A stretch of DNA of 64,000 nucleotides from NCBI GenBank assembly GCA_041662665.1, contig JBAZSC010000004.1, forward strand, positions 10,464 through 74,463, given 5' to 3'. Source of the DNA: Patescibacteria group bacterium (GTDB taxonomy: Bacteria > Patescibacteriota > JABMPQ01 > JAQVVF01). Position numbers and translations under genes: made by a program. The notes under the pieces are model-generated. The model was not told the origin of the DNA. It made no database searches and saw only the letters and a program-made list of their open reading frames with translations. Below are positions 569-55,416 of this stretch, one piece after another. How positions within the stretch are numbered: position 1 is the first letter of the stretch; every line of letters starts with the position of its first letter.

Positions 569-2209
569 CTAGAGTATCTCTTCCCGTTTTTCCTTGATAT
601 ACACAATCCAATCTTCAATAATTTCAATCATTAATTGGAATGGCGCTTCAATCAAAAAATCCATAATAAAAATAAAAACATTAACTCTAGAAAAAGTATT
701 AGAGATCCATCTGCCAAATCTCAAAATTGGCAAAGTAAAAATATCAAAAATAAATGTGATTATATTCTCTTTTTCTGTTTGTAAAATCAATTCTCGAACA
801 CTTTGCCGTAAAGAAACGCCAAAGAAACAAACGATACTGAATAACACAATGAAAATACCACCAGAAACAACATTAAAATCAAGTTTATGTAAAGACCAAA
901 TAATAAAACCAAACGTCATTGAAAAAACTAACAGATACAATGCCGAAAAAATAAAATTAAAAATAAATTTTCTTTTTCTCAATAAAACTTTTTCTTTGAC
1001 AAAAATTTTTCTTTTTACATCATCGTAAACAATTTCTTTTATGCCAGAAATAATTTTGTCAGAATTTTTTTCACCTGGTACTCGAACAAGCAATGCTACC
1101 AAAAATATCAAAAATGGCGGAACTAAAATATTCACAATAAATGCTGGATAATTTATCAATGACAAAAAAATCAATTCATACGGCACTTCTATAACTAATG
1201 CCAATAATATTTTTGTTAGCAAAATGTAAATAACTGCTCTAACAGCTTTGCGTCTTAATTTTGTTTTAAATTCTGCATATTTTTCTGAACAAACAGAACG
1301 CAATTTATCTTCCAATGATAAAATATCTGGCGGTGCAAAAGGATCAAATTCCAACGATGGCTCTGGCGGATTGATAAATAATTCCTTAGCATTCTCTGGA
1401 CTCTGTTCAATAAAACTTTTTAAAATCACAAACGGCGCCACATATTTTCGAACTAGCTGGTACAACCGATTCGCCATTTTATGATTCAATTGCCGATCTA
1501 TTCCATCTTTAATTAAATCAATATCATTCGCAATTTTTTCAATTGTTTGATATGAAGGCGTAGCAAACCAATTTGGAAAATGCAATCTAAACAAATGGTA
1601 AGACAAAATATCATCATCTGACTTTATCAATGCTCGATGAATCGCAATATAAACTTGAATATCTTTCTCGCCTTCCTTAATTCCTTGCTGCTCTAAAGAA
1701 ATTTTCTTAGCCAGCATATCGTACATGCAATTTACTAATGCTGTTTCCACTATTTTCGGTTTTAATAAATTATCAATTTCACAAGCTGAAATTGCCAGCA
1801 ACCATTCAATTTTTTTCAATGAACCTGGCAATTGCCTTTTTGCCAATTGATTATTTAAAAAAATATATTTATTCAAAATCGCGCTGATTTCTTCAACTGT
1901 TTCTTCAGTCACGCTCATATTTTTCAAATGCCTTGATCTAATCAATTCTCGAACTAACGAATCAGCAATAATTTTTGCCTTATTTTTATGGACAAATCTT
2001 CTTTTCAGAATTCTCAAAATTGCGCTTTTTCGTAATAAATGCTCTTCGCGATAATCAACTGCTGTTCTAATTTTTTCATAAAAAAAAGACAAAGTGGAAA
2101 TAACTTCATTTACTTTTATTACGGATCCTTTTCTCTTCTTATCCAAAGTCGATGCTTCGAAGAAAGCATCAAACAAATCATTGGCTTTTTTAGATAATCT
2201 TTTTTGCAT
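569..2209 (-). CDS. Hypothetical large membrane-associated protein (soluble N-terminal about 300 aa plus multi-TM C-terminus)
   Basis: 546-aa ORF with AT-rich host-like codon usage. Hydrophobic C-terminal helices; no family recognised. Confidence 0.5.
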   Translation of the reverse strand: MQKRLSKKANDLFDAFFEASTLDKKRKGSVIKVNEVISTLSFFYEKIRTAVDYREEHLLRKSAILRILKRRFVHKNKAKIIADSLVRELIRSRHLKNMSVTEETVEEISAILNKYIFLNNQLAKRQLPGSLKKIEWLLAISACEIDNLLKPKIVETALVNCMYDMLAKKISLEQQGIKEGEKDIQVYIAIHRALIKSDDDILSYHLFRLHFPNWFATPSYQTIEKIANDIDLIKDGIDRQLNHKMANRLYQLVRKYVAPFVILKSFIEQSPENAKELFINPPEPSLEFDPFAPPDILSLEDKLRSVCSEKYAEFKTKLRRKAVRAVIYILLTKILLALVIEVPYELIFLSLINYPAFIVNILVPPFLIFLVALLVRVPGEKNSDKIISGIKEIVYDDVKRKIFVKEKVLLRKRKFIFNFIFSALYLLVFSMTFGFIIWSLHKLDFNVVSGGIFIVLFSIVCFFGVSLRQSVRELILQTEKENIITFIFDIFTLPILRFGRWISNTFSRVNVFIFIMDFLIEAPFQLMIEIIEDWIVYIKEKREEIL

Positions 2210-2357
2210 AACAAGCTATCTTAGCTAAATATGCAATTTTAGTCAACAAAAAACCCAAATAATTTTAGGTTTTTAGATATAAGATATCTGTGTTATCTGT
2301 ATAGAATCTGTGTTATCTGTATAGAATCTGTTTTAAATCTGTGTAAAATCTGTAGCA

Positions 2358-3602
2358 TTAGACTTCAATATATCCTTTTTCCCAATTATCAATAATCATT
2401 TTTTCCATCATTGTTTTACCGCCGACATATTCATAGAAAATCTTATTCCATAATGATTCTTGATGGTGATAAAGATATTTAATCATCTCTTTTCGCTTCG
2501 CCAAACCCATTTCATTATCAATCAAATTAAAACTAATCAGTTCATCATTCAAATCGCCTTTAAAAAAATCTCCGACAAAATTCAAACCTTCCCAAAAAGC
2601 AAATTCTAAACCTTTAAATTTAACATCGAGTTTTGATAATGATTCTTCTGCTTTTGACCAATGAATTGTTTCTGGATTTACATGCGGTTCAAATAACCTG
2701 AAGTCATTTTCATCATCTTTTGCTAAATATCTTTGTACAATTCTAAAAAAACCAAATGGCATTTTTTCACTCAACACATCGCCACGAATTAATGAATCTA
2801 AATTATTTGCAAATTTTCCATCTGTTTTATGTTTTTCAATTAATTTAGAATAAAAAGGAATTTCGTTCAAATAATGCAAAATCAAAGAAAACATTCTCAA
2901 GGTTTCACCTGCAATTCCAGATGAGATTGGAATAATAAAAATTATTCCTAATTCTTTTAAATGGCTTAAATTATGATATTTTTTCTTAATAAATCTTTGG
3001 GCAATTCTTAACCATTTTTCATTTAAAACAATTACTTCGATATCACGATACTCAAAATCTGATGGCTGTAACTTTAGATAAGCTTTACTAAAAACATTAT
3101 TCATCCAATCTCTTGATTCAACAAATCTAAGTGCCGCATATACTTCTCTCCAATCTTCTTTTTCTAACAATAATTCCATACTTTTGTACTTCAAAGCTGA
3201 CAAAATATTCGGCGGCGGATTTTTTAATAAAAATTCTTTTGCCTTGTCTTTTTTTATAAAAAAACCTCGCTTATTATCTGTAATCTCCAATGCTACTTGT
3301 ATTGCTTTAGAACAAGATTCTTTTTTTTCACAAATCGGTTGACCAAGCATTTCAAACAAAGCTCGATCATCTCTTTTTAATTTTAAAATAATTGCTTTAT
3401 GAATAGTCAACGCATGACTATTTTTCGGCAATTTCAAAATTCCAAGCAATTCCTTTATTCGAAAATTATTTTCCGAAACAATTTTATCCAATACTAAAGA
3501 TTTTTTAAACTTTTTTTCCATCAACTCCGCAGTTTTTAAAACAGTAACCTTGTCGGTTCTCAAAATTCTCGCAATTTTTTCCGCTGAAACATAGTTTGCC
3601 AT
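2358..3602 (-). CDS. Hypothetical protein
   Basis: 414-aa ORF with no recognisable motif. Confidence 0.45.
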   Translation of the reverse strand: MANYVSAEKIARILRTDKVTVLKTAELMEKKFKKSLVLDKIVSENNFRIKELLGILKLPKNSHALTIHKAIILKLKRDDRALFEMLGQPICEKKESCSKAIQVALEITDNKRGFFIKKDKAKEFLLKNPPPNILSALKYKSMELLLEKEDWREVYAALRFVESRDWMNNVFSKAYLKLQPSDFEYRDIEVIVLNEKWLRIAQRFIKKKYHNLSHLKELGIIFIIPISSGIAGETLRMFSLILHYLNEIPFYSKLIEKHKTDGKFANNLDSLIRGDVLSEKMPFGFFRIVQRYLAKDDENDFRLFEPHVNPETIHWSKAEESLSKLDVKFKGLEFAFWEGLNFVGDFFKGDLNDELISFNLIDNEMGLAKRKEMIKYLYHHQESLWNKIFYEYVGGKTMMEKMIIDNWEKGYIEV

Positions 3603-9255: not shown

Positions 9256-10782
9256 ATGAAAATAAAAACAACAATTTTAATTTTGTTATGTTTTCTTTTT
9301 ACTCCTTTTTTAACATTAGCGGAAGGCTCATCTGCCATATCCTACAGTTTTACTTGGCCATTAGATAAATGGATCTTTGACATGGAAGGTCAAAAATTTG
9401 GCACTATCAGAGGATCTGGGATTTATCATCTTGGCGATGATATTGGAATACAAGCAAACTCACCAGTTTATGCAATTGCCACAGGAGTTGTAAAAAATAT
9501 TGGCGTTTATACTGATTTCGGCACTGTTATTTTAATTGAACACACATTAGCAAATCAAGAAAAAATTGTTTCATTATATGGTCATCTTGGACGAGACACT
9601 CAAGTTGAAAAAGGACAATTTGTTAATAAAAATCAAATTATTGGTTATATCGGTACTACAGATGTTAATGGAGGCTGGCCAGAACATCTTCATTTCGGAA
9701 TCAGAAAAGGCGCCTATGTTACAAATTGGGTCTATTGGGGCTTAGGGTCAAAGGACAAATTAAATGATTGGCATAATCCAACTGATTTTTTATGGTACAA
9801 AATTAATAATCCAGATGTTAATTCTGGAAAAATTGTAACCTCCCCAAATTATCCTGGACGATCACACATTAGAATTTTTGACGAACAAGGTCTTGCCATT
9901 CCAACTTTTGATTTCTTCGCTTACCCTCCAAAGAACAAACAAGGATCTCAAATTTCTCTTGGCGATATCAATAATGATCAAAAACAAGAATTAATAATTA
10001 GCTCAAATAGTTATAAACCACAAATAAAAATTTTTAACAAAAATTCACAAGACTTTATTGCCAAATTCAAACCATTCTCCAAAAAATATAATGGCCAAAT
10101 TAATCTTGCAACGACAGATTTAAATTTAGACGGTCAAGATGAAATTATTGCCACATCTAGTTCAAATCAATATCCAAAAATAAAAATATTTTCTTTATCC
10201 GCCGAAGTCCCGCAGGACGAAGGCGGACTATACAAAACAACAAACACTTTTATAGAATTAACAAAAATTCCAAGTCCATTTAGCCATAAAATAAAATGCG
10301 GAATTAATTTAACAACTATTGATCTAAATAATGATGGCAAGAAAGAGATTCTCGCTACACCAGCCAATAATAAAAAATCAGTTTTAAAATATTGGGACGG
10401 CACAACTTGGCAAATTTTAAAATCCAGGATTTTCAAAAAAACTACCGCAAAATTAACAACTGGCGATATTGATGCAGATGGCAATGAAGAAATAATTGCT
10501 GGCTCACAATCAAATACAAGATCAGTCATCAAAATTATTAATAAAAATGGACACATCAGAAAGAAAAAAATTAAACCATTTGCCAGATATAATCAAGACG
10601 GAATAAATATTTCAACAGTTGATTACAATAATGATGGCATTACTGAAATAATTACTTCAATTGCCAAAAATGGCTCGCCTAGAATTAAAGTTTTTCAATA
10701 TCCTCAAAATATTGCCATTGCCAATTTTTTAGCCTATAATGAAAATTTCACTGGTGGTGTAAATATAGTGGGAATAAAATAA
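9256..10782 (+). CDS. Secreted M23-family metallopeptidase fused to FG-GAP/VCBS-like repeats
   Basis: Signal peptide. M23 motifs HLGDDIG (HxxxD) and EHLHFGI (HxH). At least five DxNxDGxxE repeats (DINNDQKQE, DLNLDGQDE, DLNNDGKKE, DIDADGNEE, DYNNDGITE). Confidence 0.8.
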   Translation: MKIKTTILILLCFLFTPFLTLAEGSSAISYSFTWPLDKWIFDMEGQKFGTIRGSGIYHLGDDIGIQANSPVYAIATGVVKNIGVYTDFGTVILIEHTLANQEKIVSLYGHLGRDTQVEKGQFVNKNQIIGYIGTTDVNGGWPEHLHFGIRKGAYVTNWVYWGLGSKDKLNDWHNPTDFLWYKINNPDVNSGKIVTSPNYPGRSHIRIFDEQGLAIPTFDFFAYPPKNKQGSQISLGDINNDQKQELIISSNSYKPQIKIFNKNSQDFIAKFKPFSKKYNGQINLATTDLNLDGQDEIIATSSSNQYPKIKIFSLSAEVPQDEGGLYKTTNTFIELTKIPSPFSHKIKCGINLTTIDLNNDGKKEILATPANNKKSVLKYWDGTTWQILKSRIFKKTTAKLTTGDIDADGNEEIIAGSQSNTRSVIKIINKNGHIRKKKIKPFARYNQDGINISTVDYNNDGITEIITSIAKNGSPRIKVFQYPQNIAIANFLAYNENFTGGVNIVGIK

Positions 10783-12024: not shown

Positions 12025-12501
12025 CTAACATCGTAGCTGAGAATCACAAAGTACATCATCATCAACAACATAATTTTCCAAATCAAATCTCAATTCACCA
12101 GATCTAAAAAGCATCAACACAAAATTAACAATTGCATTATTATGACAATTGTCCGTCAAAAAAATCCGCCGATAACTACCATCAGAATCATAATAGAAAT
12201 AGATATCTGGACTGAAATCACTAATTTCTGCAAGTGTTACTTCCTTTAGATCATCTCTTTGCACATAGCCACCTAGACAATGCTCATCATTAAAAGAATA
12301 TTTTTTCATCTCCACAACAAAATACCTTATTTTTGCAACACTATGATCATATCTTGAAATTGGCTTGATGATCAAAGCTCTTAGACTTTGTTCGATCAAC
12401 ATTGCCGGTTCCTCCTCTTGTAAAAGGGCATCTTTTCTGATAGAATTAATCTCGAAATCGGTAAAACAATTTATTTTAGTACTAAATTCATAAAATGTCA
12501 A
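12025..12501 (-). CDS. Hypothetical protein
   Basis: 158-aa ORF with no recognisable motif. Confidence 0.4.
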   Translation of the reverse strand: MTFYEFSTKINCFTDFEINSIRKDALLQEEEPAMLIEQSLRALIIKPISRYDHSVAKIRYFVVEMKKYSFNDEHCLGGYVQRDDLKEVTLAEISDFSPDIYFYYDSDGSYRRIFLTDNCHNNAIVNFVLMLFRSGELRFDLENYVVDDDVLCDSQLRC

Positions 12502-15044
12502 GTCTTTCCAAAAAATATAATATTTTAGAACAAGAACAAAAATGGCAGAATTTTTGGGATCAAAACAATATTTATAAGTTCAATTCTAGCTCAAAAAAGC
12601 CAATTTTCTCAGTTGACACTCCTCCGCCTTATGCTTCAGCAGCTCATCTTCATGTCGGCCATGCCATGTCTTATACTCAAGCCGAATTTATCATCCGTTT
12701 CAAAAGAATGCAAGGTTTTAATGTTTTTTATCCCATGGGTTTTGATGACAATGGCTTACCAACTGAAAGATATGTTGAACAAAAATACAAAATTGCTGAT
12801 AAATCAAAAATTTCTCGCGAAGAATTTATTCAATTATGTTTAAAAGAAACCAAAGAAGTTGCCAAAACTTATACTTCTCTTTGGAAATCTTTAGGCCTTT
12901 CAATTGACTGGTCTTTATTATACTCAACAATCAGCGAATCATCTCGTCGTATTTCTCAAAAATCATTTTTAGATTTATACAAAAAAGGCTTATTAGAACA
13001 TCGCGAAGAGCCAACAATTTGGTGTCCGCACGACCAAACAGCATTAGCTCAAGCAGATCTTGAAGATGCCGAAGAAAAATCTACACTAAACTATATATCG
13101 TTCGAACTTAAACACTCAAACACTGAAACACCGGAACACTCTGACGATCCGACGCTCCGACGTTCTGACGCTCTCATTATCGCCACTTCCAGACCAGAAT
13201 TATTACCTGCATGTGTAGCTCTCTATGTCAATCCAGACGATGTCCGTTACAAAAACTTAATAAACAAAACTGCCATTGTTCCATTGTTTAATTATGAAAT
13301 CAAAATAAAATCCGACCCCACTGTTGATCCAAAATTTGGGACTGGCTTAATGATGGTTTGTACTTGGGGCGACTCCGAAGATGTTGCCAAATGGAAAAAA
13401 GACAAACTAGACACTAGATTAATTTTTGATAAATCTGGCCATCTTAATGAATGGGCAAAAACTTATCAAGGCTTAGATATAAAAACAGCTCGCACAAAAA
13501 TTTTAGAAGATTTACAAAAACAAAATCTTTTAGTCAAACAAGAAGATATTACTCATGTTTTAAATGTTCATGAACGTTGTAAAACTCCTGTTGAATTTTA
13601 TTTAACTAAACAATGGTTCATTAAAATTTTAGACAATTTAGAGGATTTTAAAAAACAAGGAAACAAAATAAATTGGTTTCCGCTCTTCATGAAAAAGAAA
13701 TATGACACCTGGCTAGATGGCTTAAAATGGGATTGGAATATTTCAAGAGAGCGCTATTATGGCGTCCCATTTCCAGTTTGGTATTGCAAAAAATGTCATG
13801 AAATAATTTTACCTGACGAAAAAGATTTGCCAATTGATCCATTACAAGATCAACCAAAACATCCTTGCCCAAAATGCCAATCGGAAGAATTTGTTCCAGA
13901 AAAAGATGTAATGGACACATGGATGACATCATCATTGACTCCACAAATTAATTCTCATTGGCAAGAACAAGATGAAAACAAAAAACTTTATCCAATGTCT
14001 TTACGGATTCAAGCTTTTGAAATTATCAGAACTTGGCTTTTTTATACAGTTGTAAAATCTTGGTACCATGAAAAAAAATTACCATGGCAGGATGTTATGA
14101 TTTCAGGCCATGGCTTGGATGAACAAGGCCGAAAGATTTCTAAATCATTAGGCAATTATGAACCAGTTGCTAATATAATTAAACGCTATGGTTCTGATGC
14201 TCTGCGTTATTGGTCAGCTGGATCAAATTTAGGAAATAATTTGAGATATAAAGAAGAAGAAGTCAAAGATGGCAAAAAATTAATCACCAAATTATTCAAC
14301 GCTTCAAAATTTAGCTTAATGTTTTTGCAATCCGTCAATCCGTCCGACTTTAAGAACTTTATGAACTTTAAAAACTTTCAACTTCAACCTCTTGATCAAT
14401 GGATATTAAGTAAACTTCAAACAACAATTAAAAACGTTACTGAACATTTTAACACGTACGAGTATTCAAAAGCCAAAAAAGAAGTTTACAACTTTTTCTG
14501 GAAAAATTTTGCTGATAATTATATTGAGCTTGCAAAATCAAGACTTTACAATGATGAAAACAAAGTAGCTAAAACATCAGCTCAAGCAACATTATATATT
14601 TGTTTAATAAATATTTTAAAAATGTTCGCGCCAATCTTGCCTCACATCACTGAAGAGATTTGGCAAGCGTTGCGAGAATTAAACAACGAAACAAAAAAAC
14701 AAGAAAACAGTCCAACTATCGAACAATCAATTCATATTAGTGCTTGGCCAAAAGTTGATAAAAAATTAGTTAACGAAAAGCAAGAAAAACTTGGTGATCA
14801 GATTGTCGAAATTTTAGCCGAAGTCCGAAAAACAAAATCGAATACTAATCTTGCAATGAATAAAGAAATCAAAGAAATAATTATTGATTCTAAAGAAAAA
14901 GATTTAGAAAAATTCTTTCCAGATCTAGCCAATGCCACACATGCCGAACAAATTTCATTTGGCACTGGCGATCTTCACCCTACGAGTGACCACCCGAAGG
15001 GTGGGAAAATTTCTGAAAATCTTAAAATAAAAATTGTTTTGTAG
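12495..15044 (+). CDS. valS: Valyl-tRNA synthetase (class I aaRS; Val assignment from the PPPYAS...HVGHA motif)
   Basis: HIGH region PPPYASAAHLHVGHA and KMSKS region KISKSLGN; 849 aa. Contains in-frame repeat-derived inserts at 13137-13176, 14332-14386 and 14962-15003. Confidence 0.75.
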   Translation: MSSLSKKYNILEQEQKWQNFWDQNNIYKFNSSSKKPIFSVDTPPPYASAAHLHVGHAMSYTQAEFIIRFKRMQGFNVFYPMGFDDNGLPTERYVEQKYKIADKSKISREEFIQLCLKETKEVAKTYTSLWKSLGLSIDWSLLYSTISESSRRISQKSFLDLYKKGLLEHREEPTIWCPHDQTALAQADLEDAEEKSTLNYISFELKHSNTETPEHSDDPTLRRSDALIIATSRPELLPACVALYVNPDDVRYKNLINKTAIVPLFNYEIKIKSDPTVDPKFGTGLMMVCTWGDSEDVAKWKKDKLDTRLIFDKSGHLNEWAKTYQGLDIKTARTKILEDLQKQNLLVKQEDITHVLNVHERCKTPVEFYLTKQWFIKILDNLEDFKKQGNKINWFPLFMKKKYDTWLDGLKWDWNISRERYYGVPFPVWYCKKCHEIILPDEKDLPIDPLQDQPKHPCPKCQSEEFVPEKDVMDTWMTSSLTPQINSHWQEQDENKKLYPMSLRIQAFEIIRTWLFYTVVKSWYHEKKLPWQDVMISGHGLDEQGRKISKSLGNYEPVANIIKRYGSDALRYWSAGSNLGNNLRYKEEEVKDGKKLITKLFNASKFSLMFLQSVNPSDFKNFMNFKNFQLQPLDQWILSKLQTTIKNVTEHFNTYEYSKAKKEVYNFFWKNFADNYIELAKSRLYNDENKVAKTSAQATLYICLINILKMFAPILPHITEEIWQALRELNNETKKQENSPTIEQSIHISAWPKVDKKLVNEKQEKLGDQIVEILAEVRKTKSNTNLAMNKEIKEIIIDSKEKDLEKFFPDLANATHAEQISFGTGDLHPTSDHPKGGKISENLKIKIVL

Positions 15045-19056: not shown

Positions 19057-19075
19057 ATTTTTTTATTAAATAATA

Positions 19076-19101
19076 TAATACAAATATACAAATTTATGCA
19101 A
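19076..19101 (-). promoter_or_regulatory. Conserved promoter-like block (TTGCATAAATTYGTATATTTGTATTA) upstream of ferredoxin
   Basis: The reverse complement matches the block upstream of hsp20 and ruvB and lies 19 nt from the ATG. Confidence 0.45.
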
Positions 19102-19185
19102 ATGATACAAATTGCGAATACGTCGATTCGTAATTCGCAACATTCGTATTATTCGTATTCGCATTCGTATTATATTTTATGTTTT

Positions 19186-20355: not shown

Positions 20356-20452
20356 ATCTCAAATTCCAAACAAATACCAAATCACAATACACAAAGATTT
20401 TTGGAATTTGGAATTTGGAATTTGTTTGGGATTTGGAATTTGGGATTTTAAT
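20344..20452. repeat. Long inverted repeat, caaattccaaa family
   Basis: tacaaatctcaaattccaaacaaatacc... pairs with ...ttggaatttggaatttggaatttgtttgggatttggaatttggg. Confidence 0.7.
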
Positions 20453-21023: not shown

Positions 21024-21162
21024 ATCAAGAATTATGATTAGAATTATGAATTACTGAATAACGATTTTTTTAATTTTCATAATTCTCAATTCAATATTCA
21101 AATCATCATTCATAATTCATCATTCATAATTCATAATTCATAATTCATAATTCATAATTCAC
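21010..21162. repeat. Imperfect inverted oligo-repeat (gaattatga / tcataattc words)
   Basis: gaattatgaatcaagaattatgattagaattatgaatt lies opposite (cataattcat)n x about 6. Confidence 0.6.
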
Positions 21163-21862: not shown

Positions 21863-21947
21863 TTCATTAGTACACCATTCGCAAACACTTGTCCACCGAA
21901 GTCCCGCAGGACGCAGGTGGATTCGAAAATTAATTAGAGTGTACAAC

Positions 21948-29802: not shown

Positions 29803-29874
29803 AATTTTTTTGTTTTTATTCCACCAAAGTTCCGCAGAACGTAGGTGGATTAATTTTTAAAAACTTAAAATAAA

Positions 29875-33614: not shown

Positions 33615-33796
33615 TATTTTTGTTTTTTATTTTAATAAATTTTAATTACTGATATCTTAACATTTTTTTACCTATTTAACAAAAAAGCTATCCACTGCCA
33701 AAATTTACATTATGCCAATAATAATGTATAATAAAATTAATCAAATATCATTTTTAAAAACAGAATTAAAATTAGAAAAAGTATTTGCATTATTTG

Positions 33797-33836
33797 CATA
33801 TTCGCAATATTTGCATAAATTCGTATATTTGTATTA
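33797..33836 (+). promoter_or_regulatory. Conserved about 40-nt promoter-like block ending at the hsp20 start codon (candidate leaderless promoter: TTCGCA-17-TATATT)
   Basis: catattcgcaatatttgcataaattcgtatatttgtatta is near-identical (1 mismatch) to the block upstream of ruvB and is related to the block upstream of ferredoxin. Confidence 0.5.
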
Positions 33837-34393
33837 TGCCTAAACAATCTTTTTTCGCAAGATTTTTACAATCAAAACAAGTTGCTGACAATCCTACGCC
33901 GCCAAAACCACCAGTTGGACATCTGCCAACTCCAAAGACTTCTCAGCCAGATCCAGCTCCAATCCAAGTTCAACAGCAACAACAACCACAACCTCAACAA
34001 AATTCTTCTCAATCTTCACAAGATAGTCAAGAAAATTACGAAGGCCAGCTTGCTATTGATGTTTATCAAACTCCTCAAGAAATAGTTATTAAATCAACAA
34101 TTGCTGGTGTTAATCCAGAAAACATTGACATCAATATCGATAATGACATGGTTACAATCAAAGGCGAAAGAAAAAATATCACTGAAGCAAAAGAAAATGA
34201 TTATTATTATCAAGAATGTTATTGGGGCTCTTTTTCAAGATCAATTATCTTGCCAGAAGAAGTCGTTGCTGATAATGCTGTTGCTGAATTAAAAAATGGA
34301 ATTCTGACAGTCAGATTACCAAAAGCAAATGCCGTTAAAACCAAAAAAATAGAAGTCAAAATGGCGAGCGATACAGTGACTAGTAATCAATAA
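33836..34393 (+). CDS. Hsp20/alpha-crystallin family small heat-shock protein with a Q/P-rich N-terminal extension
   Basis: Alpha-crystallin domain (LAIDVYQT...VTIKGER...AELKNGILTVRLPK). The start is assigned to the ATG at 33836 (MPKQSFF). Confidence 0.85.
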   Translation: MPKQSFFARFLQSKQVADNPTPPKPPVGHLPTPKTSQPDPAPIQVQQQQQPQPQQNSSQSSQDSQENYEGQLAIDVYQTPQEIVIKSTIAGVNPENIDINIDNDMVTIKGERKNITEAKENDYYYQECYWGSFSRSIILPEEVVADNAVAELKNGILTVRLPKANAVKTKKIEVKMASDTVTSNQ

Positions 34394-37073: not shown

Positions 37074-37189
37074 ACAAGAATACAAATCTACAAATAACGC
37101 TAATCTACGAATATACGAATCGTCGTATTCGCATATTCGCTATATTGGCATTATTCGTATATTCGTATTTTACCCAACAAAAAACTGTA

Positions 37190-37330: not shown

Positions 37331-37465
37331 TTTTGGCCACGAAAAACATTACTTTTTTTTCATGACTAAACAGCTTAGCATATTATATTTCGCCTGTCAA
37401 TACTTTTTGCTATAATATAATACGAATATGCAAATCTATGCAAATAATACGAATATACAAATTCG

Positions 37466-37505
37466 TATATTCGCAACATTTGCATAAATTCGTATATTTG
37501 TATTA
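37466..37505 (+). promoter_or_regulatory. Conserved about 40-nt promoter-like block upstream of ruvB
   Basis: gtatattcgcaacatttgcataaattcgtatatttgtatta ends 5 nt before the ATG at 37511. Confidence 0.5.
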
Positions 37506-37510
37506 CATAA

Positions 37511-38533
37511 ATGATAAAAAACACAACACCAAAAATCATCGCACCAGAAGAAAAATTAGAAGACAAAGCTCTTGATTTTACCTTAAGACCAAAAAAATTA
37601 GATGAATTTATTGGCCAAAACAAGCTAAAAGAAAACCTCAAGATCTTAATTCAAGCTGCAAACATGAGAAAAGAACAAATTGATCATTTGTTACTTTATG
37701 GCCCTCCTGGTACTGGAAAAACAACACTTGCCAACATTATTTCTTGTGAAACAAACGTCAATATCAGAGTCACTTCAGGACCAGCCTTAGAAAAAGCCGG
37801 AGATCTAGCTGCCATTTTAACAAACCTAAAAGATAATGATATTTTGTTTATTGATGAAATACACAGAATGAACAAAAACATTGAAGAAGTCCTTTATCCT
37901 GCCATGGAAGACTATTCTTTAGACATCGTTCTAGGCAAAGGTCCTTCTGCCAAAACAGTCAGATTAGATTTGCCAAAATTTACTCTTATCGGCGCAACTA
38001 CCAGAATTGGTTTATTATCATCACCTCTTCGCGATCGTTTTGGTGCAATTTATCATTTAGATTTTTATGAAGATCACGAATTAGAAAAAATTGTCACTAG
38101 ATCAGCCAATATTCTAAATATAAAAATTGAAGCTTCGGGTTCATCAGAAATCGCTAAAAGATCTAGAAAAACTCCTCGAATTGCCAACAGATTATTAAAA
38201 CGAGTTCGCGATTTTTCTCAAGTAAAATCAGATGGTACAATTACTCAAGCAACTGCTAAAAAAGCTTTAGATTTATTAGAGATTGATAGCTTAGGATTAG
38301 ATGCCGTTGACCGCAAAATTTTAATGACTATTATCCAAAAATTTAATGGCGGACCAGTAGGTATTAAAACAATTTCTCAATCAACTGCCGAAGAACAAGA
38401 TACATTAGAAGAAGTTGTTGAACCATTTTTATTGCAACTCGGTTTTATCAATCGTACAGCCAAAGGCCGAGAAACAACCAGTCTTGCTTATCAACATTTA
38501 GGCATTACTAACATCAAAGAATGGAAAAAATAG
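37511..38533 (+). CDS. ruvB: Holliday junction branch-migration helicase RuvB
   Basis: [11 protein letters not shown] Walker A, DEIHRMN Walker B and the RuvB C-terminal winged helix. Confidence 0.95.
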
Positions 38534-39361: not shown

Positions 39362-39392
39362 TTAAGCCTTGATAATCTTCAAGGCTTTTGTT
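39362..39392 (+). terminator. Rho-independent terminator
   Basis: aagccttgataatcttcaaggctttt followed by gttat. Confidence 0.6.
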
Positions 39393-39395
39393 ATA

Positions 39396-39518
39396 TTTGG
39401 CAGAAGAATCTTGAATCTAGAATTTGGAATCTAGAATGAATAATGAATTTAGAATACAGAATTCTCGATTCTAAATTCCAAATTCTATTCCAGATTCTAG
39501 ATTCCAGATTCTATATTC
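39396..39518. repeat. Inverted oligo-repeat element (gaatctagaat words)
   Basis: ttgaatctagaatttggaatctagaatg is paired with cagattctagattccagattctat. Confidence 0.6.
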
Positions 39519-39526
39519 TAATTTTT

Positions 39527-40570
39527 ATGTCCACAAAACTTTCAGACTACGACTACAATCTTCCACAAAAACTAATTGCCCAAACACCAGCTTCTCCAAG
39601 AGACAAAGCACGTCTTTTAGTTTTGAATCGAAAAAATGACAAGATTTTTCATCACAAATTTTTCGAAATTGACAAATTTTTGAAAAAGGGCGATGTCATA
39701 GTTTTAAATAATACCAAAGTCATTCCAGCCAGATTATATGGCAAAAAAGAAACCGGCGGTAAGGTCGAAATTTTATTATTAAATCCTGTAGCGACAGGGC
39801 ACTGCCCTGTCGCGGTCTGGTCGTGTCTCACCAAGCCAGGCTTAAAACCAAATACTAAAATAATTTTTAATAACAAAATTTCTGCCAAAATAATTTCTCG
39901 TGAAAATGAAAAAGCAACTATAGAATTTGATTTAAACAAAAAACAATTTAACCAATTTTTAAAAAAATCTGGCAATGTCCCATTACCTCCATACATCTCA
40001 CCAAAACAAAAAAACAATAAAACAAAAAAACAATACCAAACCGTTTTCGCAAAATTTGATGGTTCTGTCGCCGCTCCAACTGCTGGTCTTCATTTCACGA
40101 ACAGATTAATCAAAAAATTAAAAAATAAAGGTATTAAATTTGAATATATAACTTTACATGTCGGTTTAGGCACTTTTCAGCCAGTCAAAGAAAATGATAT
40201 TACTAAACACAAAATCCATTCAGAATACGCTGAAATTTCTGCACAAACCGCTAAAAACTTGAACAATGCAAAGAAAAAAGGCCATCGCATTATCGCTTGT
40301 GGAACAACAGTAGTTCGAACACTCGAAGCCGCAGCAATTAACAATTTAGCAATTAAACAATTTAGCAATAATACATCAATTTTTATCACGCCAGGCTATA
40401 AATTCAAATTCGTTGACGCGATGATCACGAATTTCCATTTACCAAAATCAACACTATTAATGTTAATTTCTGCTTTTTCTAATTTAAAACAAATTAAAAA
40501 AACTTATAAAGTCGCCATAAAAAACAAATACAAATTTTATTCTTTCGGTGACGCAATGTTAATATTGTAA
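39527..40570 (+). CDS. queA: S-adenosylmethionine:tRNA ribosyltransferase-isomerase QueA
   Basis: MSTKLSDYDYNLPQKLIAQTP N-terminus typical of QueA. The start is assigned to the ATG at 39527. Carries an in-frame GC-rich palindrome at 39786-39833. Confidence 0.85.
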   Translation: MSTKLSDYDYNLPQKLIAQTPASPRDKARLLVLNRKNDKIFHHKFFEIDKFLKKGDVIVLNNTKVIPARLYGKKETGGKVEILLLNPVATGHCPVAVWSCLTKPGLKPNTKIIFNNKISAKIISRENEKATIEFDLNKKQFNQFLKKSGNVPLPPYISPKQKNNKTKKQYQTVFAKFDGSVAAPTAGLHFTNRLIKKLKNKGIKFEYITLHVGLGTFQPVKENDITKHKIHSEYAEISAQTAKNLNNAKKKGHRIIACGTTVVRTLEAAAINNLAIKQFSNNTSIFITPGYKFKFVDAMITNFHLPKSTLLMLISAFSNLKQIKKTYKVAIKNKYKFYSFGDAMLIL

Positions 40571-40582
40571 AACAAATTTTAA

Positions 40583-40618
40583 ACTAATTTTCCGACGCTC
40601 TGACGTTCTGACGCTCTG
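40583..40618. repeat. 8-nt tandem microsatellite, about 4 units of CTCCGACG/GACGCTCT
   Basis: tccgacgctctgacgttctgacgctctg. Confidence 0.7.
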
Positions 40619-40620
40619 AT

Positions 40621-40666: not shown

Positions 40667-41203
40667 TCAGTTCATCTTCATCCTGTAAGCTTCACAAACC
40701 TTGAAAGTCAGACTTCCCCGAAAATCATAATAGTTGGTAGCACGCTTGCCATTTCCATTCACTGGCAAGTTTTCATAATCGTAAAAAGTTGAATCGTCAA
40801 TGTGACTCAACGAAATCTTTCGAGCCATTTTGCGATTCACATTGATTGCAGTCATCATTCGACCCTTGTATCGCTTCGGCCGATGTCCACCGATCAACCG
40901 CTCAGCGCGACGATTGTCTTCACCAACCTTCACGCCAACAGTCAACAGATGACGCCGCCTCAAGTTCGAATAAGGAGTGCCATTCCCACGTTCACCATGA
41001 TGTTTTCCAGTCCCGGCAACAGGCTTGCCCCGAACCGGATCTCTCATCCATTCCATCACATTCTTCTTCTCTTCACGCTTCCTTTCCACTTGCTTTCGCA
41101 CTTCTTCGTCATACGACATCCTGTTCTCAATTTCTCTTCTCTGATAGTCTCTGTCAGCAGTATTCTTGTTTGCAACACAAGCAGTATCTCGATGAATGCC
41201 CAT
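40667..41203 (-). CDS. Island protein A, hypothetical (AGTGKHHG-motif family)
   Basis: Start reassigned to the ATG at 41203, preceded by ggagggaaagag (SD). The ORF-track N-terminal extension (TTG start at 41311) contains the sigma70 promoter. The product is charged and R/K/E-rich. Confidence 0.6.
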   Translation of the reverse strand: MGIHRDTACVANKNTADRDYQRREIENRMSYDEEVRKQVERKREEKKNVMEWMRDPVRGKPVAGTGKHHGERGNGTPYSNLRRRHLLTVGVKVGEDNRRAERLIGGHRPKRYKGRMMTAINVNRKMARKISLSHIDDSTFYDYENLPVNGNGKRATNYYDFRGSLTFKVCEAYRMKMN

Positions 41204-41273
41204 CTCTTTCCCTCCACGCGCCTGTTTTTCCAGGCTGTTCGTCCCTCCACGACACCAGAAAACAGAATAAAAC

Positions 41274-41301
41274 ATTATATCACAACCATATAATTTGTCA
41301 A
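41274..41301 (-). promoter_or_regulatory. Canonical sigma70-type promoter of island gene A (TTGACA-N16/17-TATAAT)
   Basis: The minus strand reads ttgacaaattatatggttgtgatataat. Confidence 0.65.
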
Positions 41302-41378
41302 GATTTTTCAATATTTAAGCTTATTTAAAACAAAAAAACTACAAACATTTCCGAAAATCTGACAATCAGAAGCTCAGA

Positions 41379-41428
41379 AGTCTGACGCTCCGACGCTCCA
41401 ACGCTCCGACGTTCCCACGTTCCCAAAT
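41379..41428. repeat. 8-nt tandem microsatellite (CTCCGACG)n, about 6 units
   Basis: gtctgacgctccgacgctccaacgctccgacgttcccacgttccc. Confidence 0.7.
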
Positions 41429-41430
41429 AA

Positions 41431-41458
41431 AAAAGAGCCCATTAGGACTCTACAAAAA
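41431..41458 (-). terminator. Terminator of island gene B (identical to that at 40621-40648)
   Basis: aaataaaaaagagcccattaggactct. Confidence 0.65.
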
Positions 41459-41477
41459 GGTACAAATTACAAATAGT

Positions 41478-42248
41478 TCAATCGAATACAACTGGTACGA
41501 ACCCACCCTGATTGTGCCAAGGCATATGCTCTCCCATCGCAAATCCGAAAGGATCTTCAAACCGACGATCTTCCAGATCCTCAATCTTTGGAACCTTCCA
41601 ATTCGAACTCCGATCTGTAACAACTCGATTCAGCTTAGGATCGAACATTCTGAATTGAAGCCCATCTTGACTGAAAAGATCCGCATTGAAATGGATTCCT
41701 CCATTCCTATCTTCTGCATCTTCATCTTCATCATGTTCATCAAACTGCTCAAAACTCTTCCCATCAGAAGAATTGTCATCATCTTCACAATCGTCTTCAT
41801 CCTTATCATTCACATCATCAGCACAAATGTAAGCAACAGCCGGTTCAGGCACATCGTTGATAGTCTTTTTCTTTGAAATGGCCACAAGTTCCTCAATCGT
41901 AACCTGATGCTCTTCCCTGAATTGCCGATCGATCTCAGCTTCCCATTCCTGAATGGTCGAATCATCAGCTTCACTCAAAGTCATCTTCCTCAAAACCAGA
42001 TCACGATGTTCACTTTCCATATCATGCACACCCTTCGGCTGTTTCGTTCCAATCAACCTTGTTCCACACTTCAAACGAATTGTACAAGTTGATTCACCTT
42101 GTCCAGAATCACCATGATGCTTTCCAGTTCCAGCAATTGGAAAACCCCTTTCCGGAGCAATGTAAGTTCGCTTCTCCCCTTTCTCTGCAAGTTCGTTCAG
42201 CCTCATCGTATGATAAACACGCTTCTGATCCTTGGACAACCGAGCCAT
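41478..42248 (-). CDS. Island protein B, hypothetical paralog of A (AGTGKHHG motif) with a long poly-acidic tract
   Basis: Start reassigned to the ATG at 42248, preceded by gcggagggaaagagaa (SD). Shares RGFPIAGTGKHHGDSGQG and RLIG with protein A. Contains the acidic stretch DDVNDKDEDDCEDDDNSSD...DEHDEDEDAED. Confidence 0.6.
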   Translation of the reverse strand: MARLSKDQKRVYHTMRLNELAEKGEKRTYIAPERGFPIAGTGKHHGDSGQGESTCTIRLKCGTRLIGTKQPKGVHDMESEHRDLVLRKMTLSEADDSTIQEWEAEIDRQFREEHQVTIEELVAISKKKTINDVPEPAVAYICADDVNDKDEDDCEDDDNSSDGKSFEQFDEHDEDEDAEDRNGGIHFNADLFSQDGLQFRMFDPKLNRVVTDRSSNWKVPKIEDLEDRRFEDPFGFAMGEHMPWHNQGGFVPVVFD

Positions 42249-42372
42249 TTCTCTTTCCCTCCGCGCCACCAAAACTTCTTGTTTGGTGGTCGTTTTCCCG
42301 CTTTTTTCTCTTGCGGGTCCCATCGATCTCGTACCCAAAATAACATAGAACTAACCAGAAATATAGCATTTT

Positions 42373-42401
42373 ATTCTATCATTAAAAAATAAAAATGTCA
42401 A
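42373..42401 (-). promoter_or_regulatory. Sigma70-type promoter of island gene B (TTGACA-N17-TAGAAT)
   Basis: The minus strand reads ttgacatttttattttttaatgatagaat. Confidence 0.6.
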
Positions 42402-42467
42402 TAGAAATCAAAAATACCAACTTTTTGGCTTTAAAAAGACAAGAAAAATATCATAAATTTGAGTGGT

Positions 42468-42546
42468 GGCGTTCTGACGATCCAAAGCTCCCACGCTCCG
42501 ACGCTCCGAAAGTCCCACGCTCCGACGCTCCCACGTCCCACGTTCC
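42468..42546. repeat. 8-nt tandem microsatellite, about 9 units (CTCCGACG/CTCCCACG)
   Basis: gttctgacgatccaaagctcccacgctccgacgctccgaaagtcccacgctccgacgctcccacgtcccacgttccc. Confidence 0.7.
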
Positions 42547-42548
42547 CA

Positions 42549-42580
42549 AATAAAAAAATGGCATCAAAGCCATTAAATAA
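42549..42580 (-). terminator. Terminator of island gene C
   Basis: The minus strand forms aatggctttgatgccatt followed by T7. Confidence 0.6.
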
Positions 42581-42587
42581 AGAACAA

Positions 42588-42941
42588 CTACAACTTTTTT
42601 GCTTCTACTCTTCTTTCAATTTCTCGCCTTACAGCCGACAACACACCTTGAGGCATCAGCTTCGAATCAAAATTCGTCCAACGAAAAATTTCAAAACCTA
42701 CTTTGATTTCACCCAAAGCAATCACTTCTCTCGCAATTTCCAACCTTTTCTGCAAATAATCCAAATCTTCCTTTCTGCACCATCCTCTCCTTTCAAATCC
42801 AAATTCATCAAAACCCCAGTCTGCCAAAACATCATCTGGATGATCAAAAAAATCTGTTTTGTGATCACCCTCGAAAGGATAAAAAACAGTACCACGCCTA
42901 ACAAAAATATCATTCAATGCATACTTCCGACCCTTATCCAT
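42588..42941 (-). CDS. Island protein C, hypothetical 117 aa
   Basis: Strong SD aaaggagagg 5 nt from the ATG; a 7-bp GC hairpin in the leader. No recognisable domain. Confidence 0.55.
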   Translation of the reverse strand: MDKGRKYALNDIFVRRGTVFYPFEGDHKTDFFDHPDDVLADWGFDEFGFERRGWCRKEDLDYLQKRLEIAREVIALGEIKVGFEIFRWTNFDSKLMPQGVLSAVRREIERRVEAKKL

Positions 42942-42994
42942 TTCCTCTCCTTTGCCTGTCTCCCCCTTTTGACAGGCTTTTTTTGCACCTTAAA

Positions 42995-43022
42995 AGTATA
43001 TCAAAATTTTTCATAAAGTCAA
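42995..43022 (-). promoter_or_regulatory. Sigma70-type promoter of island gene C (TTGACT-N16-TATACT)
   Basis: The minus strand reads ttgactttatgaaaaattttgatatact. Confidence 0.55.
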
Positions 43023-43052
43023 TATTATATTATAATCATAATATCAAAACCC

Positions 43053-43081
43053 TTGACTTTAAATAAAAAAGATATTATAAT
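43053..43081 (+). promoter_or_regulatory. Sigma70-type promoter of island gene D (TTGACT-N17-TATAAT), divergent from the gene C promoter
   Basis: ttgactttaaataaaaaagatattataat, followed by the SD aagggggg 5 nt before the ATG at 43118. Confidence 0.6.
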
Positions 43082-43117
43082 CAACCGTTCGTTCTCTTGA
43101 CAACAAGGGGGGAAAAA

Positions 43118-43918
43118 ATGCCTCCATTCAGCCAAACAAGATTAAATATCAACAAAATGCTTTTTGAACGAAAATGGTTTCAAAATACTGATGCTAATAT
43201 CGTTCAAAAACTCTTCAATTTGCCTGAAGCTTGTAATGGTTTTTTGGAAGATCTAGCAATTCGTCCTGAACAAATTGGCAAATGGACACTTTCCAAAATC
43301 TCTGAAATCTTCATTCCATTCAATGAACGTGCCTGGAACATTTACATCGTTTTTGAAATCAAAAATCAGAATGATGAAATCAGTCATTTCCAATACCATT
43401 CTTGGCAAAAAGGACCTTCGTCTGGAGTCAAAGGCATTGTTTTGATCAAAGATAAGACTTCTGGAAAAATCTCACACTTTGTTTTATTACAAGGCTATAA
43501 ATTTGGAGCAGGAGTACTAACTTTCGATTGTATTGGTGGCTTTGCTGAAGATGGTGAAGAAAATGAAGCCGGAATGACACAACGATTCCGCACTGAAATG
43601 AAAGAGGAGCTGGGACTTCCAACCTTGCCTCCTCATCAAATTGTTTCTCTTGGCAGATTTAATCCAGATGCTGGGATTTCCAATAACAGACCTTTCTTGA
43701 TGGTTGCAATTGTTTCTTCTGAACATTTGCCATACATCGAAACATCAAATCTCCCTAATCCAAGCACATTTGAAAACGTTGCAAAAATCATTGTTCCAGT
43801 TTCCGAACTTGCAAGATTTGTTGACAATTGCGAAGACTCGTTCTTTCATGTCTGCATTACCAGACTTTTAGCCAAAGGCATTACTCTTTCCACCAGCCCC
43901 ATCTCAACTCACCCTTAA
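43118..43918 (+). CDS. Island protein D, hypothetical with a degenerate Nudix-like box in its C-terminal half
   Basis: GGFAEDGEENEAGMTQRFRTEMKEELGL approximates the Nudix box GX5EX7REUXEEXGU with a one-residue shift. Start at the ATG after the G-rich SD. Confidence 0.45.
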   Translation: MPPFSQTRLNINKMLFERKWFQNTDANIVQKLFNLPEACNGFLEDLAIRPEQIGKWTLSKISEIFIPFNERAWNIYIVFEIKNQNDEISHFQYHSWQKGPSSGVKGIVLIKDKTSGKISHFVLLQGYKFGAGVLTFDCIGGFAEDGEENEAGMTQRFRTEMKEELGLPTLPPHQIVSLGRFNPDAGISNNRPFLMVAIVSSEHLPYIETSNLPNPSTFENVAKIIVPVSELARFVDNCEDSFFHVCITRLLAKGITLSTSPISTHP

Positions 43919-48146: not shown

Positions 48147-48258
48147 AAATCTCAAATTACAAACAAATCTCAAATCACAAAGATACAAACTTTAAATCCT
48201 ATTTTGTAATTTGTCTTTTGTAATTTGTTTGGAATTTGGAATTTGGAATTTTCGTAAC
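48147..48258. repeat. Long inverted repeat, caaattccaaa family, overlapping the 3' end of the 48192-49766 gene
   Basis: Left arm ctcaaattacaaacaaatctcaaatcacaaag; right arm gtaatttgtcttttgtaatttgtttggaatttggaatttggaatt. Confidence 0.7.
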
Positions 48259-53962: not shown

Positions 53963-54446
53963 TAATTACTATTTTTCTATTCGGATCTTCGCCAATACTT
54001 TCTGTACAAACTAGCTCATTATTTGCCAAACACATATGAACAACTCTCCGCTCATAAGCAGTCATTGGTCTTAATACGATTTCTTTGTTAATTCGAACTA
54101 CTTTTTCCGCAGTATCCAAAGCTATCTTTTTTAAATATTCTTCTTTTTCTTGGCGATAATTATTCACATCAATGTAGAATGGAATTTCAGAAACGCTATT
54201 TTTTCTTTTTAAAAATACTTTTGCTAAATGTTGAATTGCAAATAAATTGCAGCCTCGCTGTCCAATCAAATAATTTGCATCATCAGCCTCAATATTCAAA
54301 CAAACAATTTCCTTTCCTTCTTTTTCGTCAATTCGAGCATTTGTCTTTCCATTGATTCCCATTTTCAGAATTAAATCTTCAACTACTCCTTTTACCTCCT
54401 CGATACTTGTTGCATTGATTTCATTCATATGTTTTAAAATAATCAA
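53946..54446 (-). CDS. jag: Jag/KhpB-type R3H RNA-binding protein
   Basis: KH-like domain plus R3H (LIGQRGCNL...; YERRVVH). Located downstream of yidC. Confidence 0.75.
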   Translation of the reverse strand: MIILKHMNEINATSIEEVKGVVEDLILKMGINGKTNARIDEKEGKEIVCLNIEADDANYLIGQRGCNLFAIQHLAKVFLKRKNSVSEIPFYIDVNNYRQEKEEYLKKIALDTAEKVVRINKEIVLRPMTAYERRVVHMCLANNELVCTESIGEDPNRKIVIKPRES

Positions 54447-54585
54447 TAATCAATTACCAATAATCAATAAATAATCAATTTCCAATAACTAAATAATCAA
54501 TAAAATCGTCGCAATTTTGATTATTAAATTATTGGTTATTGGTTTTTTACTGATTATTGAAATTTGATTATTGGTTATTTAAGCC
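54440..54585. repeat. Inverted oligo-repeat (aataatcaat / attgattatt words)
   Basis: aataatcaataatcaattaccaataatcaataaataatcaatttcc... lies opposite ...ttgattattaaattattggttattgg. Confidence 0.6.
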
Positions 54586-55302: not shown

Positions 55303-55416
55303 AAATTACAAATCCCAAAATCCAAACAAATCCCAAATAACAAATTACAAAATATCTTTTGTGGTTTGTAATTTGGAATTTGTAATTTGTTTGGTATTTG
55401 AAATTTGGAATTTCAC
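55303..55416. repeat. Long inverted repeat, caaattccaaa family, overlapping the 3' end of yidD
   Basis: Left arm aaattacaaatcccaaaatccaaacaaatcccaaataacaaattacaaa; right arm tggtttgtaatttggaatttgtaatttgtttggtatttgaaatttggaatttc. Confidence 0.7.

Follow-up and report, generated by a model that had tools for sequence, protein, structure and literature searches.

Palindromic repeats carried in frame within genes are already known in other bacteria, as intragenic REPs and as the Rickettsia palindromic elements (RPE). The latter, associated with Ogata et al. in 2000, are reportedly selfish repeats that sit in frame in the housekeeping genes of a reduced genome, at protein surfaces, where they are tolerated. 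RPE-1 is about 100–150 nt long and encodes 30–50 residues; it has no GTAG tag, and the short REPs of Rickettsia are of the CGTC type. The yeast mitochondrial GC clusters and the byp elements of Magnusiomyces are GC-rich mobile hairpins in an AT-rich genome, and are sometimes found in coding sequence.

Intragenic copies are also known for the GTAG-tagged REPs, where they are concentrated in genes for DNA-repair enzymes and for enzymes that modify or aminoacylate tRNA (Di Nocera, De Gregorio and Rocco 2013, PMC3733652). In Xanthomonas recB, different REPs occupy one site of orthologous genes, and short intragenic repeats of Rickettsia are equivalent to RPE-4 and RPE-6 (PMC3733652). Some REP families occur mainly as singletons, doublets not being obligatory (PMC3733652). 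The REPs of proteobacteria are thought to be moved by RAYT Y1 transposases, which recognise GTAG plus hairpin on single-stranded DNA (Nunvar 2010, PMC2817692; PMC3479197). Bacterial MITEs are small non-autonomous repeats that can likewise be carried as coding inserts (review PMC10969869). A literature search of incomplete coverage turned up nothing on REP-like elements from Patescibacteria or CPR.

The window analysed here is a 64-kb stretch of DNA with a mean GC content of about 31%. It contains an intact gene for tRNA preQ1(34) S-adenosylmethionine ribosyltransferase-isomerase, queA (39527–40570, + strand). The 347-aa product carries PF02547, matches PDB 1VKY at E = 5e-100, and has 100% identity with a Patescibacteria MAG protein that NCBI names QueA (MFA6296846.1, on a 136,403-nt contig). 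According to the original prediction, this gene carries a perfect GC-rich palindrome as an in-frame coding insert. The palindrome is indeed present within the 48-nt patch cctgtagcgacagggcactgccctgtcgcggtctggtcgtgtctcacc at 39786–39833, where G+C amounts to 32/48 (67%). The palindrome proper, GCGACAGGGCA-C-TGCCCTGTCGC, is a perfect one of 23 nt at 39791–39813 (no strand assigned), with 11-nt arms of 73% GC at 39791–39801 and 39803–39813 and a central C at 39802; the translation of the ORF reads LLLNPVATGHCPVAVWSCLTKPG, as claimed. We conclude that it is likely a copy of a low-copy, lineage-specific, REP-like family of GTAG-headed repeats, tolerated here as a coding insert.

The palindrome is the sole match in the 64-kb window when up to 3 mismatches are allowed, and no match of any kind was found in 100 dinucleotide shuffles. 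It is also the longest GC-rich perfect hairpin of the whole 64 kb; the best GC-rich perfect arm that a first-order Markov model of the window produced in 60 runs had 8 nt. The shuffles and simulations rule out a chance origin. As RNA the palindrome is predicted to fold at −22.4 kcal/mol (z = −3.6). An artefact of assembly or sequencing has next to no likelihood, since the same sequence is read in MAG, JGI and Logan/ENA contigs: an independent JGI contig contains the queA DNA with its palindrome and matches it at 100% over 2319 nt, and an identical QueA protein is encoded on a Logan/ENA contig. The recG copies described below are identical in JGI and ENA assemblies.

An Rfam scan of the window at gathering thresholds identified two tRNAs only, and the palindrome matches no known RNA family. 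No T-tract follows any of the six copies of the element, and those in queA and recG lie in mid-gene; the terminator scan passes over the queA palindrome yet makes a call at 39364–39387. A role as intrinsic terminator was rejected on these grounds. A CRISPR repeat is not indicated either: there is no tandem array, and no contig, the window included, has more than one copy.

The search of the genome for other copies, which had been proposed together with the original prediction, yielded five more in the same MAG, of which four are intergenic and one lies in recG. These show that the full element is a 29-nt palindrome, GTAGCGACAGGGCA-S-TGCCCTGTCGCTAC, with 14-nt arms. All five read GTAGCGACAGGGCA[C/G]TGCCCTGTCGCTAC, and the central base alone marks their orientation. 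The copy in queA (39788–39813, GTAGCGACAGGGCACTGCCCTGTCGC) retains 26 of the 29 nt, its terminal TAC being replaced by GGT. GTAG heads all six copies (39788–39791 in queA). In the full copies it is paired with a terminal CTAC, and it is unpaired only in the queA copy, which is truncated by 3 nt. GTAG also heads five other palindromes, located in the source MAG and in the queA and recG genes of relatives. Every locus holds a single unit, and the copy number is very low: at least six, the count of exact copies, one of them in the 64-kb window.

The copies came to light in a scan of JGI metagenomes, in which the palindrome matched 17 contigs. Eleven of these are GC-rich singletons and six are AT-rich (31–35% GC); the six all come from metagenome 3300014208, and one of them is the queA contig of the window. 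The search pattern left the GTA...TAC extension and the centre base unspecified, so that their constancy is real evidence for a family. The proteins encoded beside the other copies have NCBI accessions between MFA6295914 and MFA6296249, on a 645,164-nt contig. With the QueA contig, this places the six copies in one MAG of at least 0.78 Mb, on two contigs.

The family is very restricted in its distribution. Among 185,579 species genomes (one per species) there were 7 singletons, mostly GC-rich, all outside Patescibacteria and with other loop bases, and a scan of IMG/VR for the palindrome gave no match. These seven and the 11 GC-rich metagenome singletons are consistent with chance occurrence in unrelated DNA. 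A widespread family was rejected, and the scans mark the exact palindrome family as lineage-restricted. One copy appears to be restricted further: in the spacer that separates a gene for a GT4 glycosyltransferase from an rmlC-like gene, the relative GCA_028699085.1 has no palindrome, yet the 245 nt leading up to the site match at about 95% identity, and this copy is therefore lineage-specific.

The four intergenic copies lie between co-oriented (unidirectional) or convergent genes. The distance from the stop codon upstream is 3–250 nt and, if the next gene is co-oriented, that to its start is 12–18 nt. No convincing target-site motif or duplication was found in the flanks of the six copies. 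The left flank of queA does resemble that of the copy at locus L023, but both L023 flanks match it, so that the likeness reflects AT-rich low complexity.

The position of the intergenic copies raises the question of whether the hairpins are cis-elements of the host, maintained by selection as stabilisers of mRNA, processing sites or protein-binding sites, with the queA and recG copies also acting as RNA or DNA, for example by causing ribosomes to pause. Their closeness to co-oriented genes, 3–60 nt past a stop or 12–18 nt ahead of a start, recalls REPs thought to be RNA elements, and at least three lineages have a hairpin in the queA loop, of differing sequence. Against this, one copy is missing from the orthologous spacer of a close relative, there is no T-tract and no terminator call, and the family is limited to one lineage among the 185,579 species genomes. 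The coding copies, moreover, are in frame, as would be expected if the sole constraint were an unbroken protein. We consider selection for such a function unlikely as the explanation of the family as a whole, although a cis-regulatory role of the intergenic copies would be compatible with REP biology.

The copy in recG is in the same reading frame as that in queA, giving ...QKL-VATGHCPVAT-LALLTR.... The same gene (L031/L029, protein P0121) has a second in-frame GTAG palindrome, a covarying variant GTAGCGACGTTGCA-T-TGCAACGTTTCTAC encoding VATLHCNVST, which replaces 9 nt of a site that is empty in relatives (83–84% identity). At the first site, close relatives carry other inserts. The recG of relative L034 (P0125, 83% identity) has there the palindrome CGAAGGCGAAAAA-acgg-TTTCTCGCCTTCG, and the gene holds at least two GTAG palindromes, this one and GTAGTCGAGATTtcggAATCTCGCCT. 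The family of the former is also present in the source MAG, in an intergenic position (L023 631–658).

The occurrence of one peptide in one frame in two proteins could be read as a His-Cys module, VATGHCPVA, selected at the protein level in QueA and RecG. The TAG in the element is a stop codon, however, and leaves only two of the three frames free in either orientation, which makes the shared frame weak evidence. Four identical DNA copies are non-coding and orthologues have no such motif, and a selected module is accordingly very improbable. We suggest instead that the peptide is a neutral by-product of the repeat.

It might equally be supposed that the insert is not translated at all, being removed by translational bypassing or RNA excision. 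The queA palindrome, with its stable GC-rich hairpin within AT-rich coding sequence, does resemble the mitochondrial byp elements. Bypassed elements need not preserve the frame, whereas all three coding copies (one in queA, two in recG) keep it and have no stops. Removal is thus hardly credible, and the open frames suggest that the inserts are translated.

In QueA the element encodes residues V88–A96 (VATGHCPVA), within a variable loop cassette that comprises codons 87–97 (PVATGHCPVAV, 39785–39817, + strand) as judged from protein, DNA and PDB alignments. Most orthologues, from Patescibacteria and elsewhere, read 'LLLKQIS-xxx-WECL' at this loop, and the window QueA is about 5 residues longer. 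This alignment had been named beforehand as a check, and it favours the reading as an insert. HMMER alignments leave a gap of 5 residues in 1VKY and of 4 residues in 1YY3 opposite 'HCPVA'. A conserved Cys motif at this position, independent of the palindrome, would have spoken for a different origin, and none is present in 35 orthologues, 1VKY or 1YY3; C93 of QueA is encoded by a TGC that belongs to the palindrome.

The AlphaFold2 model of QueA (mean pLDDT 81.7) has strands at 79–87 and 95–102 with a loop at 88–94 between them. Since residues 88–94 are the connecting turn, the palindrome is predicted to encode the tip of a β-hairpin. The protein keeps all 42 invariant columns in an alignment of 36 QueA sequences. 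On this model the insert would lengthen the β-hairpin tip of a small β-barrel domain, and the enzyme is apparently unharmed.

The same loop is also longer in the three nearest QueA relatives (68–79% identity), and there it is filled by GTAG-headed palindromes of different sequence. In L013 the loop contains GTAGAGACGCAAT-TT-ATTGCGTCTC, the sole hairpin of such quality in its 4-kb locus. In L008 it contains a degenerate palindrome, GTAGGCAAGATTCA/TGAATTTCGCCTCCAC, in which 9 of 11 positions pair and whose centre is the same His codon. GTA is in the identical frame in the window queA and in the loops of the relatives, and the left junction CCY-GTAG is common to the window queA, L008 and L010. 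Ahead of the conserved Trp, the relatives have retained 4–5 additional codons (KKIF, AQTTI) that the window queA has lost.

The imperfect palindrome of L008 on the same His codon, and the shared CCY-GTA-G left junction, are what might be expected if the palindrome had been made locally in queA, by template switching that turned a quasi-palindrome into a perfect one, with no repeat family involved. Such an origin would leave the five copies with identical 14-nt arms elsewhere in the genome unexplained, unless queA were the master copy. These copies all but rule out an origin de novo by template switching, and we rate a purely local event as extremely doubtful.

There is no clean empty site for queA, because the loops of all three close relatives are filled by other palindromes. 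The queA copy therefore probably took the place of an earlier palindrome, as opposed to landing in a vacant site. Comparison of the loops suggests that an older GTAG palindrome was present in that of the common ancestor and was later overwritten, in the lineage of the window, by a copy of the family that is now uniform.

A second case is found in another clade of Patescibacteria, where a different loop of QueA contains in-frame hairpin elements and is empty in sister sequences. One element is about 90 nt long and encodes VIART...CFASLAMT (L036, gene 2001–3101, P0015); it is a nested hairpin of −52 kcal/mol. The other, also a nested hairpin, is about 50 nt long and encodes SPLRPPFKKGE (L037, gene 2001–3065, P0020).

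The most unusual aspect of the system is that the same protein loops are occupied again by different GTAG palindromes with conservation of the 5′ junctions. This repeated occupation could hide a mechanism of hairpin-targeted replacement. One version, which is a rather long shot, is that these loops (QueA 86–98, RecG after 'QHFETIxKL', and the second QueA loop in the other clade) are landing pads, at which unrelated GTAG families are swapped by hairpin-targeted cassette exchange. Such an exchange would keep the 5′ junction, CCY-GTAG in queA and CTC-G[T/A]AG in recG. If true, a cassette exchange without a recognisable RAYT would turn over REP families and rapidly rewrite the surface loops of housekeeping enzymes.

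The window contains other short hairpins and repeats. A second hairpin family, TCCRCC-GAAGTCCCGCAGGACGMAGG-YGGA, occurs at 10199–10226, 21891–21920 and 29820–29849 and at L028 1476–1510, and has a 97% identical copy on another contig of the source MAG. At 10199 the repeat is read in frame, as SAEVPQDEGG, in a 508-aa ORF (9256–10782), read by eye as a putative M23-peptidase/FG-GAP-type repeat protein; the other copies are intergenic. The queA element had been assigned to a family distinct from these TCCRCC...GGYGGA hairpins, which is borne out, and the latter too are found in frame in genes. A third family, CACCCTWCGRGTG-ac-CACCCGMAGGGTG, has an intergenic copy at 408–435 and another at 14976–15003, which is in frame (HPTSDHPKGG) near the C-terminus of an 849-aa ORF (12495–15044), a putative valyl-tRNA synthetase (valS) as read from sequence alone.

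GC-rich tandem octamers (GACGCTCC and variants) are found between the ORFs downstream of queA, at 40594–40619, 41384–41423 and 42476–42548, and a related stretch (...TPEHSDDPTLRRSDA..., a 91% BLAST match) lies inside the putative valS at 13139–13173. The block directly after queA (40667–43918) has a raised GC content of 41–43%. None of its ORFs (214, 286, 185 and 273 aa) matches a Pfam family, and two of them share 'GTGKHHG(E/D)(R/S)G'; relatives L008 and L010 have syntenic unannotated genes after queA.

Many intergenic spacers consist of tandem repeats of 7–8 nt (TTTGGAA, AATTCTA, TTCATAA, AATAATC and others), for example 39405–39521 just upstream of queA, 20400–20448, 21076–21161, 48203–48251, 55365–55413 and 54437–54580. 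They are often large inverted pairs, such as the 64-nt arms at 54437–54500 and 54517–54580. A dispersed AT-rich repeat, with units like TATTCGCA and ATTTGCAT, is found upstream of several window genes and on other contigs of the MAG (window 37404–37519, 33782–33837, 37079–37172 and 19073–19157; L023 1606–1654; L025 2414–2503). In the GT4-rmlC spacer, the first 245 nt or so are about 95% identical between L023 (2808–3040) and L038 (4153–4400), the figure for QueA being 79%. Within this stretch are a pair of hairpins and AAAGCAGGTG...CACCCTGCTTTT, which resembles a terminator; the stretch may be a structured leader or a small RNA.

Comparison with the systems described above brings the element closest to the GTAG-tagged REPs. 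Like them, it forms a short hairpin of high GC content with GTAG at its head, is dispersed, mostly between unidirectional or convergent genes, and has some intragenic copies that are read through. Its length (29 nt in five copies, 26 nt in queA) is within the 20–40 bp of a REP unit, and the tag GTAG (GTRG) is at one end in all six copies. As with intragenic REPs, the host genes are a repair gene, recG, and genes for tRNA enzymes, namely queA and, for the other hairpin families, valS. There are also differences. The canonical tag is unpaired, whereas here GTAG is paired to CTAC in the full copies, and the 14-nt arms with a 1-nt centre are unlike the GTAG-tagged REPs. Classical REP families usually have more than the six exact copies found here, and in contrast to many REPs there are no inverted doublets (REPIN/BIME) or clusters, only singletons at every locus. 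The host belongs to Patescibacteria, a phylum outside the survey of GTAG-tagged REPs in PMC3733652.

The resemblance to RPE lies in the in-frame palindromic inserts at surface positions of conserved proteins in a reduced genome. The size is different, the element having 29 nt and 9–10 residues against about 100–150 nt and 30–50 residues. GC clusters and byp elements are organellar and unrelated in sequence, and the ribosome skips byp elements, whereas the frame continues through the inserts described here. A MITE has an internal segment bounded by terminal inverted repeats, and a target-site duplication; here the whole unit is one hairpin, and no common duplication is seen beside the six copies.

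REPs typically flank their RAYT gene. A tblastn search for RAYT/IS200 in about 0.2 Mb (the window and related loci), using approximate queries of low sensitivity, gave only noise (E > 1), and a Pfam scan of ten unannotated ORFs, including those of the 40.6–43.9 kb block, identified no transposase. Because no RAYT-type gene was found in the window or related loci, the mechanism of spread is proposed by analogy. We hypothesise that a REP-type mechanism spread the copies in the form of single-stranded DNA hairpins, most of the copies settling between genes and two landing in surface loops of QueA and RecG, where they would survive as long as the reading frame stays open. The queA copy would have overwritten a resident GTAG palindrome, with the loss of 4–5 neighbouring codons.

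These observations imply that the ultra-small, AT-rich genomes of Patescibacteria carry several families of short GC-rich palindromic repeats, and that their in-frame invasion of conserved genes (queA, recG, valS) parallels what is seen in Rickettsia and some proteobacteria. Inserts of this type account for odd patches of high GC and for lineage-specific extra loop residues in the proteins of CPR bacteria; they can also mislead alignment, homology modelling and gene calling. Loops that are repeatedly filled by different palindromes in sister lineages, with no RAYT evident, offer a tractable case for the study of REP-like movement and turnover, and allow one to ask whether palindromes contribute to the evolution of protein loops.
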